Positions 17,751 through 64,000 of a stretch of DNA of 64,000 nucleotides are shown here, piece after piece. The notes below the pieces were generated by a model. The model was not told the origin of the DNA and did no database searches. It was given only the letters and a program-made list of their open reading frames with translations. Source of the stretch: Candidatus Kaiserbacteria bacterium RIFCSPHIGHO2_01_FULL_53_29 (lineage in GTDB: Bacteria > Patescibacteriota > Minisyncoccia > Phycocordibacterales > UBA2100). Both the position numbers and the translations under genes were made by a program. The stretch's first letter is position 1; each line of letters opens with the position of its first letter. Location: positions 10,712 through 74,711 of the forward strand of contig MFKT01000009.1 in NCBI GenBank assembly GCA_001781125.1, read 5' to 3'.

Positions 17751-20414
17751 CTATAGCGCATTTTCGATTTGGGCAAGGATGTTTATCAACATCTGTGCAT
17801 CAGTATCCGTAATTTTCCCGTTTGTCGCTTTTTTCGATATCATTGTCGTAAGATTGGCAAGAGCTGCAGTAAGAGCCTGTTTGTTCTCCAATCTGTCGAC
17901 ACGCTTGAGGAGATTATTTTTTAGGCTCGCTTTTATATTCAACGAGATGATTTTTGTCTTAAGTTGAACAAGGACGTCTGCATTGAGCGCCACGCTATCT
18001 GACTGTGCCCCAAGAAGCTCCACAAGTGCCACAATTTCATTCGCATCCGCGGTTGTAATTTTCCCTTTCACTTCCTGATTTGATACTTTCTTCTTGAATT
18101 TCGCGAGAACTTTCGCATTCTTTTGTTTTTTTACCTCGATCTTCTTTTCAAGACCCACAACCTTTTTCAAAAGATCCTGCTTCAACTTGTCTTTGATGTC
18201 GAGGGTTAGGATTTTTTCTTTGATAAGTACAAGTAATTCACTGAGCGATGGTTCAGTGCCATCAGGAGAAATTGTTCGGTCGATCTGATTGTCGCCATTT
18301 ACGTCAACCTCTATAGTTGTCTCCTCCGGTGCGGTGCTTACAACCTCAAACGTGGCATTCGTATTCTCCGTCGTCGGAATATCGGAGAAGCTGGCGACTG
18401 GCGTCGTCGCATCTGCTATAAAATCCTCGATGGTGACCGTCGTGGAGCCGCTGCCGACACCCTGGTAGACAAATGTATAGGTACCCGTTTTCGGGAGAAA
18501 GATGTGCTGGGTCTCGCTGGTGTAAATGAAGCTACTCCCGGGAATATTTCCTAGAATCGTGAGAATCTCGGCTGAAAGATCTTGATTGGGATCAATGCCG
18601 GTGAGGTTCCCGAATTCATCGTACGCGCCGAGAATTACGGGAGAGTAGGTGCTGACTATTAACTCGTCGTCGAGATCGACAACCTGTGGTTTTGCGCCTA
18701 AGACGAAGTTAGTCTGTAGTATATTTTCACCACTGATTACTGACTCTATTAAACTTCGAATTGGACTGGTGCTTAACAAATCTCTATGTTGTGCTTGTTT
18801 GTTACCAGGCTCTCGATATAAATCAAGATTGAAAAAATACGTTTCATCCGCCACCGACGAAATTGCGCTCGGATAAACAACTGTGCTATCGCCTTCGCGG
18901 GTAAACAACGTCCCGTAACTCTGCAAAAAATGACTCGTTCGATACTCCACCGCTTTTACTGTTGGTCTCCCCCAGCCAGCGACCTGCACCACGCGAATGT
19001 GCTCGGGAAACGCATACGTGTCGTACATGGCATGGAAATCGGCAGCACCCCCCATGAGATCAGTCCGCACAACTTCTGGAATGTGCAGAAAGTTCTCGGG
19101 CGGACTCGTACGCGTAACACCTTGCCCCGTCATAAATTCGACGAACGGACTGTAGGTATTAATGAGGTTGCCCCAGAAATTTCTCCAGTTCTGCGTAAAA
19201 CCGACATCCGCGAATGTGATAACCGGATCAGTTACCGCACTAAAATATGCGGGCGATGGAAGGAGGCTGTATGCAGACGGCATGTTTTGCGAAATCGTGC
19301 GCGCTGCCGCGGGTTGCACAATAAAGCCGCTAGCAATTCCTTCACCATCGCCGTGGAGGATTGCAGAAATCGCCTGCGGTGTGCCGAGTTGTGGCGAGCC
19401 AACCATGACAAACGCATCGATGAGGTTATCTTTCCCCTCTTGTTGTAAACGTTTGATGATAGCCTTCCCCAAAAGTCCACCCATCGAGTGCGCAACAATT
19501 GTGACTTTGCCAGATCTCGAATTCGTCGCGAGCTGCTCTATTTTCTCAAGCACATCCACCATGCCACTGGACGTTTTGATGCCATCATCAATTACTTTCT
19601 CCGGCGAGTGTCGCCAGTCGTATGCAAGCGGCAGCCACTCTTCTATTAATCCTTCGCTGACAAGAGCGTCCATAAAGTTCGAAAACGGAGAGTAGATAGG
19701 AGAGCCGTAGAACGTGTCCAAAATGCCATTCACCTGTACATCATTCACACTCTCTCCCGCTTCATTGAGCGCAAGCTGCGGTACGTCATTGCTCCACGCG
19801 GTCGGCGGCCAGAGTGTGTCCGACCCGCTCCTCAAGATACTTCCCTTGATTCCTGGCAAGAAGAGCACGCTAGAGAATCCTACAACGGCACTCTCATCGG
19901 TGACGGTGAAGCGAATGGTTTCTACATAGTCTTCTGCTGATTGCGCGTATACAGTGTCGCCCAACACAAACTGCAGAAATCTCTGATAGAGGCCCCGATT
20001 CACTTGCACGGGTGGTGGTACGTTGTAGACGTCGAGCTCGTAGACACCAGGGACTTCCCACGTGAGGGTGTTCTCGCCGAAGAATCCTCCGATTGCTCCA
20101 ATGAGCTCGCGCGGAGATTGCGGATCGGGTATGCGAAAGAGAATGCCGCTCACGTCGAAAGAAGCACTACCTTCTATGCGGGCGACGTACACGTCTTTTG
20201 AGATATTGAGTGCTACGGGATACGTCCCGTCGTCTTCCATGTATATGCGATCGTCTGAAATGATTTCTCCTGTGTTGTCATCTTCTACGACAGTGCCCCA
20301 CACAAGCTGCGACGAAGCGAATGCGAAAGATGGTAGAGCGCACAGAAGGACGCCCGCGGTCAACGCAACCAAAAATACGTAGTAAAAGCGATTCGAAACT
20401 GTTCTGGCGGACAT
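17751..20414 (-). CDS. secreted alpha/beta-hydrolase, lipase/esterase-like (PGAP1/LCAT-like GHSMGG), with C-terminal tandem coiled repeats
   Basis: Signal peptide. VTIVAHSMGGLLGK nucleophile elbow. Two tandem K-rich repeats of about 65 aa at the C-terminus. Confidence 0.65.
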   Translation of the reverse strand: MSARTVSNRFYYVFLVALTAGVLLCALPSFAFASSQLVWGTVVEDDNTGEIISDDRIYMEDDGTYPVALNISKDVYVARIEGSASFDVSGILFRIPDPQSPRELIGAIGGFFGENTLTWEVPGVYELDVYNVPPPVQVNRGLYQRFLQFVLGDTVYAQSAEDYVETIRFTVTDESAVVGFSSVLFLPGIKGSILRSGSDTLWPPTAWSNDVPQLALNEAGESVNDVQVNGILDTFYGSPIYSPFSNFMDALVSEGLIEEWLPLAYDWRHSPEKVIDDGIKTSSGMVDVLEKIEQLATNSRSGKVTIVAHSMGGLLGKAIIKRLQQEGKDNLIDAFVMVGSPQLGTPQAISAILHGDGEGIASGFIVQPAAARTISQNMPSAYSLLPSPAYFSAVTDPVITFADVGFTQNWRNFWGNLINTYSPFVEFMTGQGVTRTSPPENFLHIPEVVRTDLMGGAADFHAMYDTYAFPEHIRVVQVAGWGRPTVKAVEYRTSHFLQSYGTLFTREGDSTVVYPSAISSVADETYFFNLDLYREPGNKQAQHRDLLSTSPIRSLIESVISGENILQTNFVLGAKPQVVDLDDELIVSTYSPVILGAYDEFGNLTGIDPNQDLSAEILTILGNIPGSSFIYTSETQHIFLPKTGTYTFVYQGVGSGSTTVTIEDFIADATTPVASFSDIPTTENTNATFEVVSTAPEETTIEVDVNGDNQIDRTISPDGTEPSLSELLVLIKEKILTLDIKDKLKQDLLKKVVGLEKKIEVKKQKNAKVLAKFKKKVSNQEVKGKITTADANEIVALVELLGAQSDSVALNADVLVQLKTKIISLNIKASLKNNLLKRVDRLENKQALTAALANLTTMISKKATNGKITDTDAQMLINILAQIENAL

Positions 20415-32983: not shown

Positions 32984-34894
<1,911 letters not shown>

Positions 34895-43038: not shown

Positions 43039-45180
43039 TTAAATATCAAGTGTCGCTTCTTTGGCGTGCGATTGGATGAACGACTTGCGTGCCGGCACAT
43101 CGGTACCCATGAGCATGTCGAACACCTGGTCGGCATCTTGGGCATCCTCGATGGTTACTTGCTTCAAAATCCTGCGGGCAGGGTCCATCGTCGTCTCCCA
43201 CAATTCGTCGGAATTCATCTCGCCCAAACCCTTGTATCTTTGGACGGAAATGCGAGAGCCTGTAGCTTGTAGCCTGTGGCCTGTAGCTTCTTCGCTGTCT
43301 TCTTCTGGCTCCAAGCTACCGGCTACCGGCTCCGGGCTATTCTTGCCGACGAGTTTAACGCGCTCTTCGTCGGTATACGCATAGAATATTTCCTTTCCTT
43401 TCTTCACCTTAAAGAGCGGCGGCTGGGCGATGTAGAGGAAGCCCCCGTCGATGACGGGCCGGAAGTGCCGATACATGAGCGTAAGCAGGAGCGTGCGGAT
43501 GTGCGCGCCGTCGACATCCGCGTCGGTCGCGATAATTATCTTGTGATAGCGCAGTTTCGTAATGTCGAAGATATCCCCGATCGCGGTCCCGAGGGCGATC
43601 ACGAGATTCTTGATCTGCTCGCTCCCGAGCATTTTGTCGAGCCGCGCGCGCTCGATATTGAGGATCTTTCCGCGCAGCGGCAGAATAGCCTGAATGCGCC
43701 TGTCGCGTCCCATCTTGGCAGTGCCACCGGCCGAATCTCCCTCCACAATGAAGAGTTCTGATTCCTCGGCGCTTTTGCTCTGGCAGTCGGCAAGCTTGCC
43801 CGGGAGCGTCATGCCGTCCAAGGCACCTTTCCTCATGATGCTATCCTTGGCGGCTTTTGCGGCTTTGCGCGCTTTCATCGCAAGCGCCACTTTGCCCACG
43901 ATCGCACGAGCGTCATCCGGATGCTCTTCGAGAAATGCATTGAAAGCCTCGCCAAAAACGCTCTCCGTGGCGCCACGCGCTTCGACAGAGCCGAGCTTGG
44001 ATTTCGTCTGACCTTCGAATTGCACTTCGCGCATTTTGACGGAAATGACCGCGGTCATGCCCTCCAAGACGTCGTCGCCGGTGAATGTGTCGCTTTCTTT
44101 GCTGCCGTTGCCATTCTTCATTTGCGCGTTCAAGGTACGCGTGAGCGCGGTCTTGAAACCGGTCACGTGCATGCCGCCTTCAACATTGTAGACGTTGTTG
44201 GCGAATGCGGAGAGACGCGTGGTAATATCCTCGACGTATTGCAGGGAAATTTCCACTTGCACGCCGTCCTGCTCTTTCTCGACGTAGAAGATATTTTTGT
44301 GTATCGGCGATTGGAAGCGGTTCTGGAACGCCACGAGCGAGCGGAGCCCGCCTTCAAAATAAAAGCTGGTCGACGGCGCATCGATACCAAGCTCACGCAG
44401 ATAATAGACATCACTTGCCTTGAGCAATGTCGAAGGGTCAACTTGCCTTAAATCTAATATTGAAATACGCAGCCCTTTTACGAGATAGGCTTGCTGACGC
44501 ATGTGCGACACGATCGTTTCCCAATTGAATCCCCGTTCGGGGAAGATCGAACCGTCGGGCTCAAAGGTGATGATGGTGCCGTGCAGTTTTGAAGAATCGA
44601 GTTTTTTTGTCTTGCCCACCGGCTTCCCGCCGCCTTTGTATTCCTGCACATACTTCCCGCCATCGCGATGCACTTCCGCACGCACATTGCTCGAGAGCGC
44701 ATTGACGACCGAGACGCCCACACCATGCAGACCTCCCGAGACTTTGTATCCTTGCCCGCCGAATTTGCCTCCGGCGTGAAGCATCGTCATGACCGTCTCG
44801 AGCGTGGAAAGTTTTGTCTTGGGATGGATCTCGACGGGAATGCCGCGACCGTTGTCGGCGACGCGTACACGATTGGCTGGCAGGAGTGCCACCTCGATGT
44901 CATTGGCGAATCCGCCCATTGCCTCGTCGCGCGAGTTGTCGAACACTTCCCATACAAGGTGATGGAGCCCCGCCGTATCGGTGGTGCCGATGTACATCCC
45001 TGGCCTACGCCGCACCGCCTCCAAACCCTCGAGGACAGTAATATCAGCCGCGCCATACGAACTTCCCTGCCTGCCGGAAGGCAGGCGCCCTGCAGATGAC
45101 GAAACCGCCTTCTTTAAGGCGGGTTCTTTACCTTTTTTTGCTTTCTTTTCAGCCATGTTTAAGTCGCTCAAGTATACCAA
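43039..45180 (-). CDS. gyrB: DNA gyrase subunit B
   Basis: GHKL ATPase motifs, TOPRIM (EGDSAGG), and C-terminal tail all conserved. Confidence 0.95.
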   Translation of the reverse strand: MVYLSDLNMAEKKAKKGKEPALKKAVSSSAGRLPSGRQGSSYGAADITVLEGLEAVRRRPGMYIGTTDTAGLHHLVWEVFDNSRDEAMGGFANDIEVALLPANRVRVADNGRGIPVEIHPKTKLSTLETVMTMLHAGGKFGGQGYKVSGGLHGVGVSVVNALSSNVRAEVHRDGGKYVQEYKGGGKPVGKTKKLDSSKLHGTIITFEPDGSIFPERGFNWETIVSHMRQQAYLVKGLRISILDLRQVDPSTLLKASDVYYLRELGIDAPSTSFYFEGGLRSLVAFQNRFQSPIHKNIFYVEKEQDGVQVEISLQYVEDITTRLSAFANNVYNVEGGMHVTGFKTALTRTLNAQMKNGNGSKESDTFTGDDVLEGMTAVISVKMREVQFEGQTKSKLGSVEARGATESVFGEAFNAFLEEHPDDARAIVGKVALAMKARKAAKAAKDSIMRKGALDGMTLPGKLADCQSKSAEESELFIVEGDSAGGTAKMGRDRRIQAILPLRGKILNIERARLDKMLGSEQIKNLVIALGTAIGDIFDITKLRYHKIIIATDADVDGAHIRTLLLTLMYRHFRPVIDGGFLYIAQPPLFKVKKGKEIFYAYTDEERVKLVGKNSPEPVAGSLEPEEDSEEATGHRLQATGSRISVQRYKGLGEMNSDELWETTMDPARRILKQVTIEDAQDADQVFDMLMGTDVPARKSFIQSHAKEATLDI

Positions 45181-45245
45181 AAACCACCCCCTTTGGCTAG
45201 CCGAAATCCACTGGTATAGTGCACGATAACGTATCGGTAAAAGTT

Positions 45246-46421
45246 ATGGCTGAATTCATCATTGATCGGGGCGAGGAAAAGAAAATCCGTGAGGATCTCG
45301 AATCAAGGCAAGACGCGGAGGCGGTCCGCATCAAGCGCTATCTCGCGATGCCTGACCTCTCGCGGACCGAGGGAAGTCCCATCAAAGAGTTGGTGGAGAG
45401 AATAACTTCCATCATCGATTTCAAGAATTTTAACGTCGTAAATCCCCCCGAGATCGTGCCTATTTCGATTGCATTCGATCTATTCGATTTTACAGAAGAT
45501 CATCCCGCACGAAGCAAGTCGGACACGTACTACACCGATGAAACTCACATACTGCGACCGCATACGACGGTTATGTGGTACTACTACCTTCAGCTTGATG
45601 AGGTAAAGCAAAGACTGGCGAAAGGAGAGGATATCGGGGTCTTTTCTTTCGGCAAGGTCTATCGCAAGGACGAGATAGACAAAACGCACATGAACGTCTT
45701 TCATCAGATAGATGCTTTGTATCTTTGCCCAAAAGAGAACAAGACCCTCCAACTCCAAGACCTTCAAGATATCGAAGCAAAAGTGGTGAAATCGGTTTTC
45801 GGAGAGAATATCGAATATCGCTTCCACGAAGAAACGTTTCCCTATACGCATCCGAGTACCGAGATAGAGATGAAAAAACCCGCCCGACCGAATGACGGTC
45901 ATTCGGGCGGGGGCAATGATTGGGTCGAGATCCTCGGCAGCGGCGTCGTGAAAGAATCGGTCCTCCAGAAACTCGGTGTTGATGCAGATCTCTACAACGG
46001 CTGGGCTTTTGGTTTCGGCCTTGAACGCTTCGCCATCATGAACATGGAACTCCCGGACATTCGACTCCTGTGGTCCACCGATCCGCGTGTCGTGGGTCAA
46101 CTGCGCTTGGGGCAAAAGTTCCAAGAGGTCAGCAAGTATCCTCCCGTAGTGCGCGATATATCGTTCGTGGTCTCGAACGACTTTATTCCCAATAACTACT
46201 TCGATCTCATCCGCGAAACGATCGGCGACGAGCTTATCGAGGAAGTGAAGCAGAGGGACAAGTACGAGGACGCGAAAAAATTCGGCGCGCAGAGATCGAG
46301 CTACACGTATCGCATTGTGTATCGCTCGCTCCAAAAGACGCTCACGAACGCCGAGGTGGATGCACTTCACAAGAAACTCGAAAAACAAACTGCCAAACAA
46401 TACGACGCAACGATCAGGTGA
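45246..46421 (+). CDS. pheS: phenylalanine--tRNA ligase, monomeric mitochondrial-type (PheS catalytic core plus C-terminal FDX-ACB anticodon-binding domain); alternative start 45219
   Basis: Class II motifs (FHQIDALYLC, GWAFGFGLERFAIM). C-terminal ...DISFVVSNDF...YFDLIRETIGDELIEEVK...YTYRIVYRSLQKTLTNAEVDALHKKLE closely resembles the FARS2 C-terminal domain. No pheT adjacent. Confidence 0.85.
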   Translation: MAEFIIDRGEEKKIREDLESRQDAEAVRIKRYLAMPDLSRTEGSPIKELVERITSIIDFKNFNVVNPPEIVPISIAFDLFDFTEDHPARSKSDTYYTDETHILRPHTTVMWYYYLQLDEVKQRLAKGEDIGVFSFGKVYRKDEIDKTHMNVFHQIDALYLCPKENKTLQLQDLQDIEAKVVKSVFGENIEYRFHEETFPYTHPSTEIEMKKPARPNDGHSGGGNDWVEILGSGVVKESVLQKLGVDADLYNGWAFGFGLERFAIMNMELPDIRLLWSTDPRVVGQLRLGQKFQEVSKYPPVVRDISFVVSNDFIPNNYFDLIRETIGDELIEEVKQRDKYEDAKKFGAQRSSYTYRIVYRSLQKTLTNAEVDALHKKLEKQTAKQYDATIR

Positions 46422-46512
46422 CATTGCAGAGATCTCTTCAGAGACCTCATCCGCCAGAGATGCAGAACGAGCTCTCGCTTCTCTCACCTCGTTAGGCTAT
46501 AATCCCCCGACT

Positions 46513-47745
46513 ATGATAGGCACGGCTATCACCTATACCTTCCTCTTCACCTCACTCTTTTTCGAGGTGTTTCTGCTCGTGTCGTTCCTTGAAAATCGAA
46601 AGAAACATCGAACTGGAGCTCTCGTAAATCTCAACGACGGTGATCTTCCCACCGTCGCGATCGTTGTCCCTTGTTTCAACGAGGAAAAGAACGTCGTGGC
46701 AACGCTTCGATCACTCTGCCAGCTCACGTACCCGAAGGAAAAATTAGAGATTATTATGGTGGACGACGGCTCGACCGATCGGACTTTTGAGATCGCACGG
46801 CAATTCGCACACGACGCCCGCATACGGATATTCCAGAAACAGAATGGCGGTAAGCACACGGCAATGAATCTCGCGTTGGAACGAACGAACGCGGAGCTGA
46901 TCGGATGCCTCGATGCGGATTCGATCGTCGAGCAGGGTGCCCTCATGCGTATTGCGCCCGTATTTTCGAATTCCAGGATCGCAGCCGTGACGCCGGGGAT
47001 CCATGTGCGTGAGCCGCACACGATACTGCAACACATCCAAAAGGTGGAATATCGTCTCAGTATCTTCAACCGTTTCATATTCGCGGCACTCGGCTCCGTC
47101 TTCATCGCCCCGGGACCATTTTCCATTTTCCGCAGCACGGTCGTCCGCGAGTTAGGCGGCTGGCGCGAAGGACATTCGACCGAGGACATGGAAATGGCGC
47201 TGCGCATGCAGGCAGGAGGATTCTTGATAGCAAACGCGCCCGGTGCGATCGTCCATACCTCGACCCCTCCGACACTGCGCGGACTTTTCCGCCAGCGCGT
47301 GCGATGGACCTACGGGTGGCTGCGCAACGCAGTGGATTATCGCTTCATGATCGGCAATCACACCTATGGCAACTTGAGTCTTATCATTCTCCCCTTTGCG
47401 CTCATCTCAATTGCAGCAGGCATATTTTTCTTCGGGCGTATTGTGTGGTATGGCGCACAGACACTCATGCAAGAGATCGTACGCATAGAGACGGTCGGCA
47501 GCATTTCGCGTCATCCATCGTTCGATCCCTTCTATCTCAATACGAGCGCTTTCTTGTTCCTTGTAGTGGTGAGTGTCGCCCTGATCTTTGTCCTCATTTG
47601 CGTAGGATCATTTATCGGTACAGGAAAACGTATGCCGCCCGTTTCGACTCCGCTTTTCCTTCTTTTCTACAGTTTTATCGCACCCCTGTGGTTGTGTACT
47701 GCCCTCGTCCGGGCCGTATTCAAGACGGGCGTGCGCTGGCGCTAA
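46513..47745 (+). CDS. family 2 processive beta-glycosyltransferase (NodC/cellulose-synthase-like, QRVRW motif)
   Basis: N-terminal transmembrane helix. DxD (MVDDGS, LDADS). QRVRWTYGW. C-terminal transmembrane helices. Confidence 0.8.
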   Translation: MIGTAITYTFLFTSLFFEVFLLVSFLENRKKHRTGALVNLNDGDLPTVAIVVPCFNEEKNVVATLRSLCQLTYPKEKLEIIMVDDGSTDRTFEIARQFAHDARIRIFQKQNGGKHTAMNLALERTNAELIGCLDADSIVEQGALMRIAPVFSNSRIAAVTPGIHVREPHTILQHIQKVEYRLSIFNRFIFAALGSVFIAPGPFSIFRSTVVRELGGWREGHSTEDMEMALRMQAGGFLIANAPGAIVHTSTPPTLRGLFRQRVRWTYGWLRNAVDYRFMIGNHTYGNLSLIILPFALISIAAGIFFFGRIVWYGAQTLMQEIVRIETVGSISRHPSFDPFYLNTSAFLFLVVVSVALIFVLICVGSFIGTGKRMPPVSTPLFLLFYSFIAPLWLCTALVRAVFKTGVRWR

Positions 47746-48460: not shown

Positions 48461-48472
48461 AATCTCGATTTG

Positions 48473-48545
48473 AGCCGGGGGTGGGATTCGAACCCACGGC
48501 CCCCTGTTTACAAAACAGGAGCTCTAACCACTGAGCTACCCCGGC
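48473..48545 (-). tRNA. tRNA-Thr (anticodon TGT)
   Basis: Minus strand reads gccggggtagctcagtggttagagctcctgttttgtaaacagggggccgtgggttcgaatcccacccccggct. Cloverleaf with 7-bp acceptor stem, T-arm GTGGG-TTCGAAT-CCCAC, anticodon loop tTTGTAa. Confidence 0.85.
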
Positions 48546-61698: not shown

Positions 61699-64000
61699 TC
61701 ACGGCGTTGGAGTTTCGGCAGGGGGAGGCTCGGGTGTCGGCTCCGGAGCGGGCGGAGGCGTCGGTTCAGGTTCTGGCTGTGGCTCGCCGGAGCCTTCGGC
61801 GGACTGTGTCTCGCCAGAGGCGGACTCCGTCCCGCCGACGGCGGAGGCGGCTGATGGTTCAGGTTCAGGAGCGGGTTCATCTGCAGGTGCTTCTTCCGCG
61901 GGCGGACTCTCCGCAGGAGGTTCTTCTGCGAGGGAGTCCTCGGGAGTGTCCGCTGGCGGATTCTCGGCGGGTGGGGATTCTTCTGGCGCATCTTCCGCCG
62001 GAGGCGTCTCCTCCGAAGGAGGTGACGCCTCAGGAGTTGGCGACGGAGTTGGTTCTGGAGCTGGTGCCGGAGATGCAGAGCCCCCACCGCCGGAGCTTCC
62101 GGAGGAAGCTCCGGCGGCTCCCGCAACTTGCCCTTGCAAAAGCGATTTGAGCTGCTCTTCGTCGACGCATGTCTCCCCGATGCAGAGCTTGTCGGTAGTG
62201 ACCTCGCGCGCGAAGACCTTGTCGAAGATGCCGGTTACCGCGTAGATGGCTGTCTTGTACACTTCGACCACCATGTCGCCGATCGATTGCATGGCACTCT
62301 TCAGTCCATTCGAGGCATCGGCGAATGCCGCGTACCATGGCGTCTTACCCGCAAACTCTTCGCGTGGCGTCGAGGTTGCTGACATTATCTCCATCGCGCT
62401 CGTCGTCGCCACAAGGTCCTCAAACTTCGCGTCGAGCTCTTGCACCGCTCCGGCAAGCACGGCCGTCATGTTCTCATACTGGACGCTGCGTGGTGTCACG
62501 CCGTCGCTCTCGAAGCTGACAAGCCGCGGGTCGAGCTGACTAACCTCTTCAGCAATGAACCCGAGGTGCGTCGTCTGGTCATCCGTGAAGTCGGCATTGT
62601 ACACAAACGACACCGGGCGCAGTTGTTTGACCAACGCGAGGTTCTCGGCCGATGAAAGCGAGGTGATGCTGTTTTTGTAGCGTTGCGAGGAGACGGTGCA
62701 CGCTCCGGAAACGTAGGTGATGTTTCCGGTAGACGTCGTGTGGCACACGGTCGTGTTGCCTCCGCTGTTGCCTAATACCGCGAAGAGGTCGGCCGGGCTC
62801 GCGTCAAGGTCCGACCAGTTGATGTAGGTGTTGCCTCCGTCGCCCGCGTTGATGACGATGTTGCCGCTACTATCCGAGCGTATACTGCCTTTTATCGCGT
62901 TGCTATGCGAGAACGCAATATTCGTCTGGCCGCCGGTGTTATCCAGAGTCAGATGCGCGTTGCTTACCGTCGCGACGGCAGTAGCGTTTGATTTTGACAG
63001 CGTCAGAAGTCCCGTCGGCGTCGTCGTCCCGATGCCGACGTTGCCGTCTTTATTGATCCGCATCGTCTCTGCGTGCGAGGTTCCCTGATGATGAGTCTCA
63101 AAGGCGATTTCCTGAGACGTACCCCCAGCATCTGAAATAGCGTCAAAAAGGATGGCGGCTCCCCCCGTGACACCAAGGTTGTAGGTAGTACCTGCTGTGA
63201 GGAACGAGATGCGCCGGTCGGTGGTATCTGTGCTGTCAAGTCTGATACCGCCCGTTATAGTCAGCTTTTCACCCATGCTCGTCGCCCCAATGCCGACGTT
63301 GCCGGAGGATGTTATGACAATGCCGGTGGCGTTTGCCCCGATCGCAGCATCGCTGTTGGTGTTGGTGATATAGAAGTTGCTGTCAGCCGAATTAATACCT
63401 ACCTTATACTCGACCGTATTCGGGTCGTGGAAGCGGATGCCCACGTCAGCATTGTCTTTGTAGAGTTCAAGCAGTTCACTCGGACTCGTCGCCCCGATGC
63501 CGACGTTGCCGTTGCCTGCCACCGTAAAGAGGTCAACGCTACCGACATCCACATTCAAAATTTTATTCGTTGAAGCGCCCCCTTCACCGCGGATTAGCAG
63601 GCCGTGCGCGGTCGCCGCCGTTGAACGATTATGAATTACTTGAGTGTAGCCCGTTGCATTTGTCTCCCATACAAGGCCGTTCGTCCCTGCGGGGGTGCCA
63701 GCCTGATCACCGGGATTATTTGGGGTATTGGCAAGGAGATTGATCGGACTCGTCGTCCCGATGCCGACGTTGCCGTTACCCGTTACCGTGAGAGTCGGGG
63801 TTGAGTTAAGCGTACCGGCGTCCATGGTGTAGAAACGCAAGTCTGTGTCCGAACTGCCGGGTAGATAAGACTGGATACGGGCCAGGCCTTCCCCGTTCCC
63901 GTGTGCAAAGTCGATAGCGTTGGTGTCGGCAACCGAAAACGAGGTATTGGTAAGGATAATTTTCTGCTCACCGGAACCGGAAATGCTTAGCTTACTTTGC
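61699..64000 (-). CDS. tail-fibre-like repeat protein with Peptidase_S74 intramolecular-chaperone domain and Pro/Glu-rich C-terminal tail; N-terminus beyond window
   Basis: GNGNVGIG(T/A)TSP repeats. S74-like block LRPVSFVYNADFTDDQTTHLGFIAEEVSQLDPRLV. The ORF stays open upstream of the annotated TTG, through position 64000. Confidence 0.65.
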   Translation of the reverse strand, partial: QSKLSISGSGEQKIILTNTSFSVADTNAIDFAHGNGEGLARIQSYLPGSSDTDLRFYTMDAGTLNSTPTLTVTGNGNVGIGTTSPINLLANTPNNPGDQAGTPAGTNGLVWETNATGYTQVIHNRSTAATAHGLLIRGEGGASTNKILNVDVGSVDLFTVAGNGNVGIGATSPSELLELYKDNADVGIRFHDPNTVEYKVGINSADSNFYITNTNSDAAIGANATGIVITSSGNVGIGATSMGEKLTITGGIRLDSTDTTDRRISFLTAGTTYNLGVTGGAAILFDAISDAGGTSQEIAFETHHQGTSHAETMRINKDGNVGIGTTTPTGLLTLSKSNATAVATVSNAHLTLDNTGGQTNIAFSHSNAIKGSIRSDSSGNIVINAGDGGNTYINWSDLDASPADLFAVLGNSGGNTTVCHTTSTGNITYVSGACTVSSQRYKNSITSLSSAENLALVKQLRPVSFVYNADFTDDQTTHLGFIAEEVSQLDPRLVSFESDGVTPRSVQYENMTAVLAGAVQELDAKFEDLVATTSAMEIMSATSTPREEFAGKTPWYAAFADASNGLKSAMQSIGDMVVEVYKTAIYAVTGIFDKVFAREVTTDKLCIGETCVDEEQLKSLLQGQVAGAAGASSGSSGGGGSASPAPAPEPTPSPTPEASPPSEETPPAEDAPEESPPAENPPADTPEDSLAEEPPAESPPAEEAPADEPAPEPEPSAASAVGGTESASGETQSAEGSGEPQPEPEPTPPPAPEPTPEPPPAETPTP

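Follow-up and report, generated by a model that had tools for sequence, protein, structure and literature searches.

How does a bacterium charge its phenylalanine tRNA when the gene for its phenylalanyl-tRNA synthetase (PheRS) encodes a catalytic core and an anticodon-binding domain in one chain and has no pheT beside it? The question is raised by a stretch of 64,000 nucleotides from Candidatus Kaiserbacteria bacterium RIFCSPHIGHO2_01_FULL_53_29 (contig MFKT01000009.1, positions 10,712 to 74,711; hereafter the window), in which one forward-strand gene encodes a PheS-type core followed by a ferredoxin-fold anticodon-binding (FDX-ACB) domain. In the classifications and reviews of the aminoacyl-tRNA synthetases consulted, bacterial PheRS is an (alpha-beta)2 heterotetramer, with anticodon binding and Tyr/m-Tyr editing both assigned to the beta subunit, and single-chain PheRS is treated as mitochondrial (also in PMC3275996); the classifications list PheRS-M only with FARS2. 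Meheust 2019 merged PheRS alpha and beta in one family, and a full-text literature search found no description of a single-chain PheRS in bacteria of the candidate phyla radiation (CPR). The architecture is already well known and both of its domains are detected by public pipelines; what appears to be new is its occurrence in CPR bacteria. We propose that the window gene is likely the housekeeping PheRS of this organism in single-chain form and that it is probably, to judge from its sequence and setting, the sole PheRS of the cell and one that lacks editing. The same form appears to serve as the regular PheRS in a large set of CPR (Patescibacteria) bacteria with very small genomes.

A PheS-type core fused to an FDX-ACB domain

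The two-domain architecture was found by three approaches, and the fusion that the earlier note on this DNA had proposed is upheld by each of them: Pfam, sequence matches in the PDB and a predicted structure. In Pfam, the class II core (Table 1) is followed by an FDX-ACB domain that scores 73.8 bits, above the gathering threshold of 31.1 (E 1.5e-20), so that the search for PF03147 at the C-terminus was positive, and the N-terminal coiled coil of PheS (PF02912) had no match in the window protein at E <= 0.1. Its best sequence matches in the PDB are human mitochondrial PheRS (mtPheRS) entries (3cmq and 5mgu; E ~1e-49), which cover both domains. Next are bacterial PheS alpha chains, most of them with E values between 1e-28 and 1e-32; the similarity to PheT beta chains is confined to their last ~100 residues. 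An AlphaFold2 model calculated with a 31-sequence alignment as input reached a mean predicted local distance difference test (pLDDT) score of 90.8. The top PDB matches of this model in Foldseek are again human mtPheRS (3cmq/5mgh; E 3e-34), aligned over the full length, and the model superposes best on 3tup_A, the open state with tRNA bound (template modelling (TM) score 0.69, root-mean-square deviation 4.8 Å); Foldseek also matched the catalytic core of the model to bacterial PheS alpha chains.

The active site is intact, and its signatures support the reading of the protein as a real PheRS. Numbered, as throughout, along the 400-residue open reading frame (ORF), the core motifs are HPAR (95-98), RPHTT (113-117), motif 2 GKVYRKDEIDKTHMNVFHQID (145-165), FPYT (207-210) and motif 3 GWAFGFGLER (261-270). 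Conserved across the family are HPAR, the motif 2 block GKVYRKDE.D..H..FHQ with its Arg, FP[Y]T.PS.E and motif 3 in the form GWAFG.GLER. A check of the positions verified that A263 corresponds to E. coli A294 and T210 to E. coli T251, both of them known determinants of the Phe pocket. At amino-acid substrate contacts of canonical PheRS, the family carries three conservative substitutions throughout, relative to both the canonical and the mitochondrial enzymes: RT.TS has become R.HTT (T117 for E. coli S171), FHQ.E has become FHQID (D165 for E. coli E210) and FPF has become FPY (Y209 for E. coli F250). Such changes might adjust how well an enzyme with no editing domain tells Phe from Tyr.

On this basis, the PheS-type class II core would activate Phe with ATP and transfer it to tRNA-Phe, and the fused FDX-ACB domain would read the GAA anticodon, a task that falls to domain B8 in PheT and to the C-terminal domain in mtPheRS. 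Like mtPheRS, the enzyme would act without the PheT beta subunit and would have no B3/B4 editing site. We infer Phe specificity and a lack of cis-editing, and the architecture suggests that the protein is monomeric.

The gene lies in the ORF given by the earlier note, which was present on the forward strand at 45219..46421 with a GTG start at 45219 and 400 codons; the strings quoted in that note (DISFVV, YFDLIRETIGDELIEEVK and YTYRIVYRSLQKTLT) were all found in the translation. The ATG in Table 1 is probably the true start and is preferred to the GTG because homologues are 377-391 aa long, because alignments begin at query residues 10-19 and because a -10-like box, a weak consensus match only, overlaps the GTG and ends at 45220. 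Promoter and terminator consensus matches in the scan were not above chance, with 2 promoter-like sites against 1.2 expected.

One surface loop of the core carries an 11-residue insertion, PARPNDGHSGG (Table 1), that is specific to this lineage: of 115 family members compared, the 114 others lack it. It recurs in P0001, a 99%-identical protein from an independent contig, and is therefore real and no assembly error. The pLDDT is low at model residues 211-230, the area of the insertion, and falls below 50 at residues 217-219.

Absence of adjacent pheT and conservation of the locus

No pheT was found near the gene. A tblastn search of the 64-kb window with four PheT queries (E. coli, two Firmicutes and one Mollicute) detected no PheT core, its sole match being the FDX-ACB domain of the gene itself. 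The next gene is a glycosyltransferase, as the earlier note had stated, and belongs to family 2 (GT2) by Pfam; it occupies the slot in which a canonical operon would have pheT. When canonical PheS genes were looked up (E. coli, two Firmicutes and one Mollicute), pheT was directly downstream in every case, and the canonical PheS proteins nearest to the window protein are those of Mollicute, Firmicute and Thermotogota genes. The longest GT2 ORF, which has a TTG start, overlaps the 3' end of the PheRS gene by 107 nt (46315-46421); its start codon is uncertain, and the overlap may be a shadow of the PheRS reading frame. Comparable apparent overlaps of 45-103 nt were seen in three related loci (L002, L018 and L019).

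An orthologue scan that took one genome per GTDB species yielded 70 loci, each limited to 10 kb on either side of the gene, from Kaiser-, Nomura-, Yanofsky-, Zambryski-, Vogel- and Doudnabacteria and other Paceibacterota/Minisyncoccia. Every locus had a single PheS-like gene, none had an adjacent pheT (0/70), and no PheT core (B3_4, B5 or B6/7) was present in the 1.04 Mb around these orthologues. In agreement with the earlier note, the window thus contains no pheT, and in none of the 70 related genomes does pheT adjoin the gene. We consider it likely that no PheT is encoded anywhere in the genome.

The protein family is large. More than 6,400 proteins are homologous to the window PheRS at E < 1e-10, and among the top 120 all have the same two domains and a length of 351-414 aa, except for one of 627 aa. 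The closest relatives come from metagenome-assembled genomes (MAGs) of Patescibacteria and include a Kaiserbacteria protein at 76% identity, which places the organism as Kaiserbacteria-like within the Paceibacteria (Parcubacteria). JGI names the homologues 'phenylalanyl-tRNA synthetase alpha chain', and NCBI mostly 'hypothetical protein', a name that annotation pipelines now give to many such proteins.

Both sequence and surroundings are strongly conserved. In 48 of the 70 loci, gyrB is adjacent to the gene or no more than a few kb away, and a GT2 gene adjoins it in ~20. Mean identity to the window protein, calculated over the same 44 genomes, is 58.9% for PheRS and 65.4% for GyrB; in Doudnabacteria-type loci the conservation of PheRS exceeds that of GyrB. 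This constraint and synteny match the expectation for an essential translation gene. A circumstantial point is that in one related locus (L054) the PheRS gene is followed, 260 bp downstream, by a normal tRNA-Phe(GAA) gene whose discriminator base is A73. In addition, a tRNA-Thr(UGU) gene at window positions 48472-48545 on the reverse strand lies 1-4 kb from the PheRS gene both here and in ~30 of the 56 related loci scanned, giving a conserved neighbourhood gyrB-PheRS-GT2-tRNA-Thr.

Table 1. Coordinates of the PheRS gene, its parts and its neighbours in the window
Feature	Coordinates	Strand	Description	Basis
Single-chain PheRS gene	45246..46421	+	Likely ATG at 45246, 391 aa; stop codon 46419-46421	
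Class II PheS-type catalytic core	45363..46100	+	Residues 49-294	Pfam PF01409 (tRNA-synt_2d), E 4.9e-54
C-terminal FDX-ACB domain	46131..46418	+	Residues 305-400	Pfam PF03147
Lineage-specific 11-residue insertion	45879..45911	+	Residues 221-231, surface loop of catalytic core	
Short divergent intergenic region, gyrB/PheRS gene	45171..45220		One promoter-like site per strand	Consensus scan
gyrB	43039..45180	-	Upstream, divergent neighbour of the PheRS gene	Translation
Family-2 glycosyltransferase	46315..47745	+	Downstream of the PheRS gene	Pfam PF13641, PF00535, PF13632

The window as a whole is a segment of a bacterial chromosome that carries rpoB, rpoC, dnaE, dnaG, SMC, gyrB, a short EF-Ts gene (tsf) and rpsB, and its GC content is even, at 49-58%. 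Three large ORFs on the reverse strand lie in this otherwise housekeeping stretch: a 713-aa protein with a Peptidase_S74 domain (endosialidase chaperone, phage tail-fibre-like) at 61699-63840, an 887-aa protein with an LCAT-like lipase domain at 17751-20414 and a 636-aa ORF at 32984-34894 that has no Pfam match.

Phylogenetic position and alternative explanations

When 1.84 billion cluster representatives were searched exhaustively with HMMER, the Paceibacteria family collapsed largely to one full-length representative, and more distant fused proteins were also returned. A neighbour-joining tree was built from 101 sequences (344 columns, 100 bootstraps); the method is rough and most tips carry no taxon label. 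In this tree, all proteins with a PheS core and an FDX-ACB domain formed one clade, apart from canonical PheS (bootstrap 94), and the Paceibacteria family, including the window protein, was monophyletic (99). The group in which this family stood (84) also took in a code-25 lineage, a pair of Oligoflexia-like proteins and SrmL, the 'PheS-related mystery ligase' of NCBIfam. A large separate clade (54) contained yeast Msf1 and amphioxus FARS2; its identified tips are S. osmophilus Msf1 and Branchiostoma FARS2, and it also includes short proteins of 337-380 aa, one of them on a 340-kb phage-like contig. Since the CPR family is monophyletic and lies outside the Msf1/FARS2 clade, it appears to be mitochondrial-type in architecture and not in descent. 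The term 'mitochondrial-type', used in the earlier note, is thus accurate for the architecture but, by this tree, not for the ancestry, and the score against the mitochondrial profile (TIGR00469) is likewise below its cut-off (214.6 against 258.35).

Relatives outside the Paceibacteria family occur in varied settings. P0247 (L076:9463-10833) is a fused PheRS homologue of 456 aa whose gene lies close to an F-type ATP synthase operon. Of the 13 TGA codons in its reading frame, 7 are aligned with conserved Gly, a pattern that indicates genetic code 25 and a CPR lineage of the Gracilibacteria or Absconditabacteria type. A 348-aa single-chain PheRS that scores above the pheS_mito cut-off is encoded at L073:8001-9047, on an ENA scaffold of 340,874 bp, and in L074. 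With its many small unannotated ORFs and its genes for PhageMetallopep, PcfJ and an SNF2 helicase, the L073 contig is suggestive of a huge phage or another kind of mobile element. A search of IMG/VR returned no relative of the phage-like-contig protein P0395 and none of the CPR PheRS family, and a viral origin was rejected on this result. Outside the CPR, an Oligoflexia MAG (JAIBBV010000034.1; L075:10001-11245) encodes among metabolic genes a fused PheS-FDX-ACB protein of 414 aa, 41% identical to the window protein and named 'hypothetical protein' by NCBI.

Several observations weigh against the reading of the window gene as a single-chain housekeeping PheRS. Among NCBIfam profiles, the top match of the window protein is the uncharacterised family SrmL (NF051887), at 231.6 bits against a cut-off of 300, and the protein stays below the cut-offs of both pheS_mito (the scores given above) and pheS (TIGR00468; 161.6 against 237.45). 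The 31 family members score alike, the best E values being 5e-75 for pheS_mito and 1.2e-75 for SrmL, the latter still under the cut-off; P0241, a 50%-identity cluster representative of the family, just passes pheS_mito (264.3). The S-to-T, E-to-D and FPF-to-FPY changes at substrate contacts may leave room for altered specificity, and some CPR bacteria keep PheRS-beta, many of them without its B2 domain (Mukai 2017, PMC5370408). One explanation that draws on such observations is that the gene encodes an accessory PheS-like paralogue, a non-translational or unknown ligase like SrmL, and that the real PheRS is encoded by a canonical pheS-pheT pair at another site in the genome. SrmL as the top profile match speaks for it, as do the placement of the CPR family with SrmL and not with the mitochondrial clade and the existence of related fused proteins in non-CPR bacteria, such as the Oligoflexia MAG, that probably have pheST too. 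We nevertheless regard this explanation as unlikely. The window protein remains under the SrmL cut-off, whereas a true SrmL, P0335, scores 402 bits; the CPR family keeps the PheRS catalytic residues, whereas SrmL has diverged at them; and gyrB accompanies the CPR gene in 48 of 70 loci, whereas SrmL has a reverse transcriptase gene and a PLD-like gene as neighbours. Moreover, the family is conserved at the level of GyrB, and universal retention of a redundant second PheRS would be unlikely in genomes of less than 1 Mb. Two assignments were accordingly rejected: membership of SrmL, given the score, the retained PheRS signature and the housekeeping context, and identity as a canonical PheS, given the score, the missing coiled coil and the missing adjacent pheT.

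The gene could instead encode a true PheRS that needs one or more separate PheT-derived partners, for example a stand-alone B2 or a trans-editing factor, and that is not equivalent to the mitochondrial monomer. Six Doudnabacteria-type loci (L039:9571-9987, L060:9368-9823, L022, L026, L061 and L062) point in this direction, for in each of them the PheRS gene is immediately preceded, on its own strand, by a stand-alone tRNA_bind (PF01588) ORF of 138-151 aa. This ORF is 34-38% identical to residues 39-148 of E. coli PheT, the B2 domain, and belongs to a family of 770 members, many named 'PheRS beta chain' by JGI, in which all 120 members listed consist of a single PF01588 domain; the free protein looks like a surviving fragment of the beta subunit. 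However, neither the window nor any of the other 64 related loci has such an ORF, B2 is reportedly dispensable and many CPR PheT proteins lack it (PMC5370408), and human mtPheRS is established to be active alone (PMC3275996), so a dependence on partners seems improbable as well. Far less credible still is a recent acquisition from a eukaryote (FARS2-like) or a phage, or contamination of non-bacterial origin. The best PDB match is indeed human mtPheRS, and the 340-kb phage-like contig encodes short proteins of 345-367 aa with scores above the pheS_mito cut-off, but the window gene sits within a bacterial housekeeping chromosome of uniform GC, its synteny is kept across 70 CPR species, its family is monophyletic (99) and lies outside the yeast/animal clade, and its product is only ~30% identical to human FARS2. 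A recent eukaryotic acquisition was rejected on the position of the family outside the mitochondrial clade in the tree.

The preferred reading therefore remains that of a single-chain housekeeping PheRS, and several consequences would follow if a major bacterial radiation had this form as its only PheRS. The minimal enzyme would be a recurrent solution in reduced genomes and not an organelle oddity. These bacteria would live without cis-editing of mischarged tRNA-Phe, which bears on the fidelity of CPR translation and raises the question of whether the conserved S-to-T, E-to-D and F-to-Y changes in the pocket compensate for the missing editing. The origin of the mitochondrial enzyme would become open to phylogenetic test, and marker sets that expect pheS and pheT may under-score such genomes. 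More tentatively, and with odds that we place well below even, Paceibacteria, Doudnabacteria and code-25 lineages resembling Gracilibacteria or Absconditabacteria might wholly lack PheT and use an editing-less single-chain PheRS, with an ancestral bacterial PheS-FDX-ACB lineage that also gave rise to the mitochondrial and phage-like-contig enzymes and with a free B2 surviving in some. Were that the case, the 'mitochondrial' monomeric PheRS would be a bacterial invention and not a eukaryotic one.

Comparison with known systems

SrmL (NF051887) shares the two-domain layout of the window PheRS and a similar length, and it belongs to the nearest clade in the neighbour-joining tree (bootstrap 84). 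The true SrmL P0335 is only 33% identical to the window protein, and its family has altered catalytic signatures, with nisR for HPAR, pHq for FHQ, HPYT for FPFT and LEcG for LGsG. The neighbours differ too: reverse transcriptase and PLD-like genes at the one SrmL locus examined, and gyrB in the window family. That SrmL locus (L072:605-9741, JGI contig Ga0302357_1480195) has P0335 followed by two ~740-aa proteins without Pfam match, a reverse transcriptase (RVT_1), a 564-aa protein and a PLDc_2 protein, a layout that resembles a defence island. PADLOC gave no match for P0335 or for the window PheRS, and a role of the window gene in a defence system was rejected on that ground.

Canonical PheS, the alpha subunit of the (alpha-beta)2 heterotetramer, has a homologous core, with 29-37% identity to residues 108-327 of E. 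coli PheS and with the same catalytic motifs. Unlike canonical PheS (TIGR00468), the window PheRS has no PF02912 domain, carries an added FDX-ACB domain and is not followed by pheT; the canonical PheS neighbours examined do have PF02912. The added domain corresponds to PheT domain B8, since the C-terminal ~100 residues of the window protein align to positions 698-798 of TIGR00472 (pheT_bact) and are 26-31% identical to residues 696-794 of E. coli PheT; Firmicute PheT also aligns, at ~696-797. Unlike in PheT, this domain sits on an alpha-type core, and B1-B7, including the B3/B4 editing site, are missing.

The system with an identical architecture is mtPheRS (FARS2 and yeast Msf1; PheRS-M; TIGR00469; PDB 3CMQ and 3TUP), a single chain of ~390-415 aa. 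Neither this enzyme nor the window PheRS has an N-terminal coiled coil or an editing domain, and the two share motifs 1-3 and the FP.T/GWAFG signature of the Phe pocket. They differ in that the window PheRS does not have the insertion that divides eukaryotic matches into two stretches, that its family has the S-to-T, E-to-D and FPF-to-FPY changes, and that it is ~30% identical to human FARS2 and is encoded on the chromosome of a free bacterial lineage.

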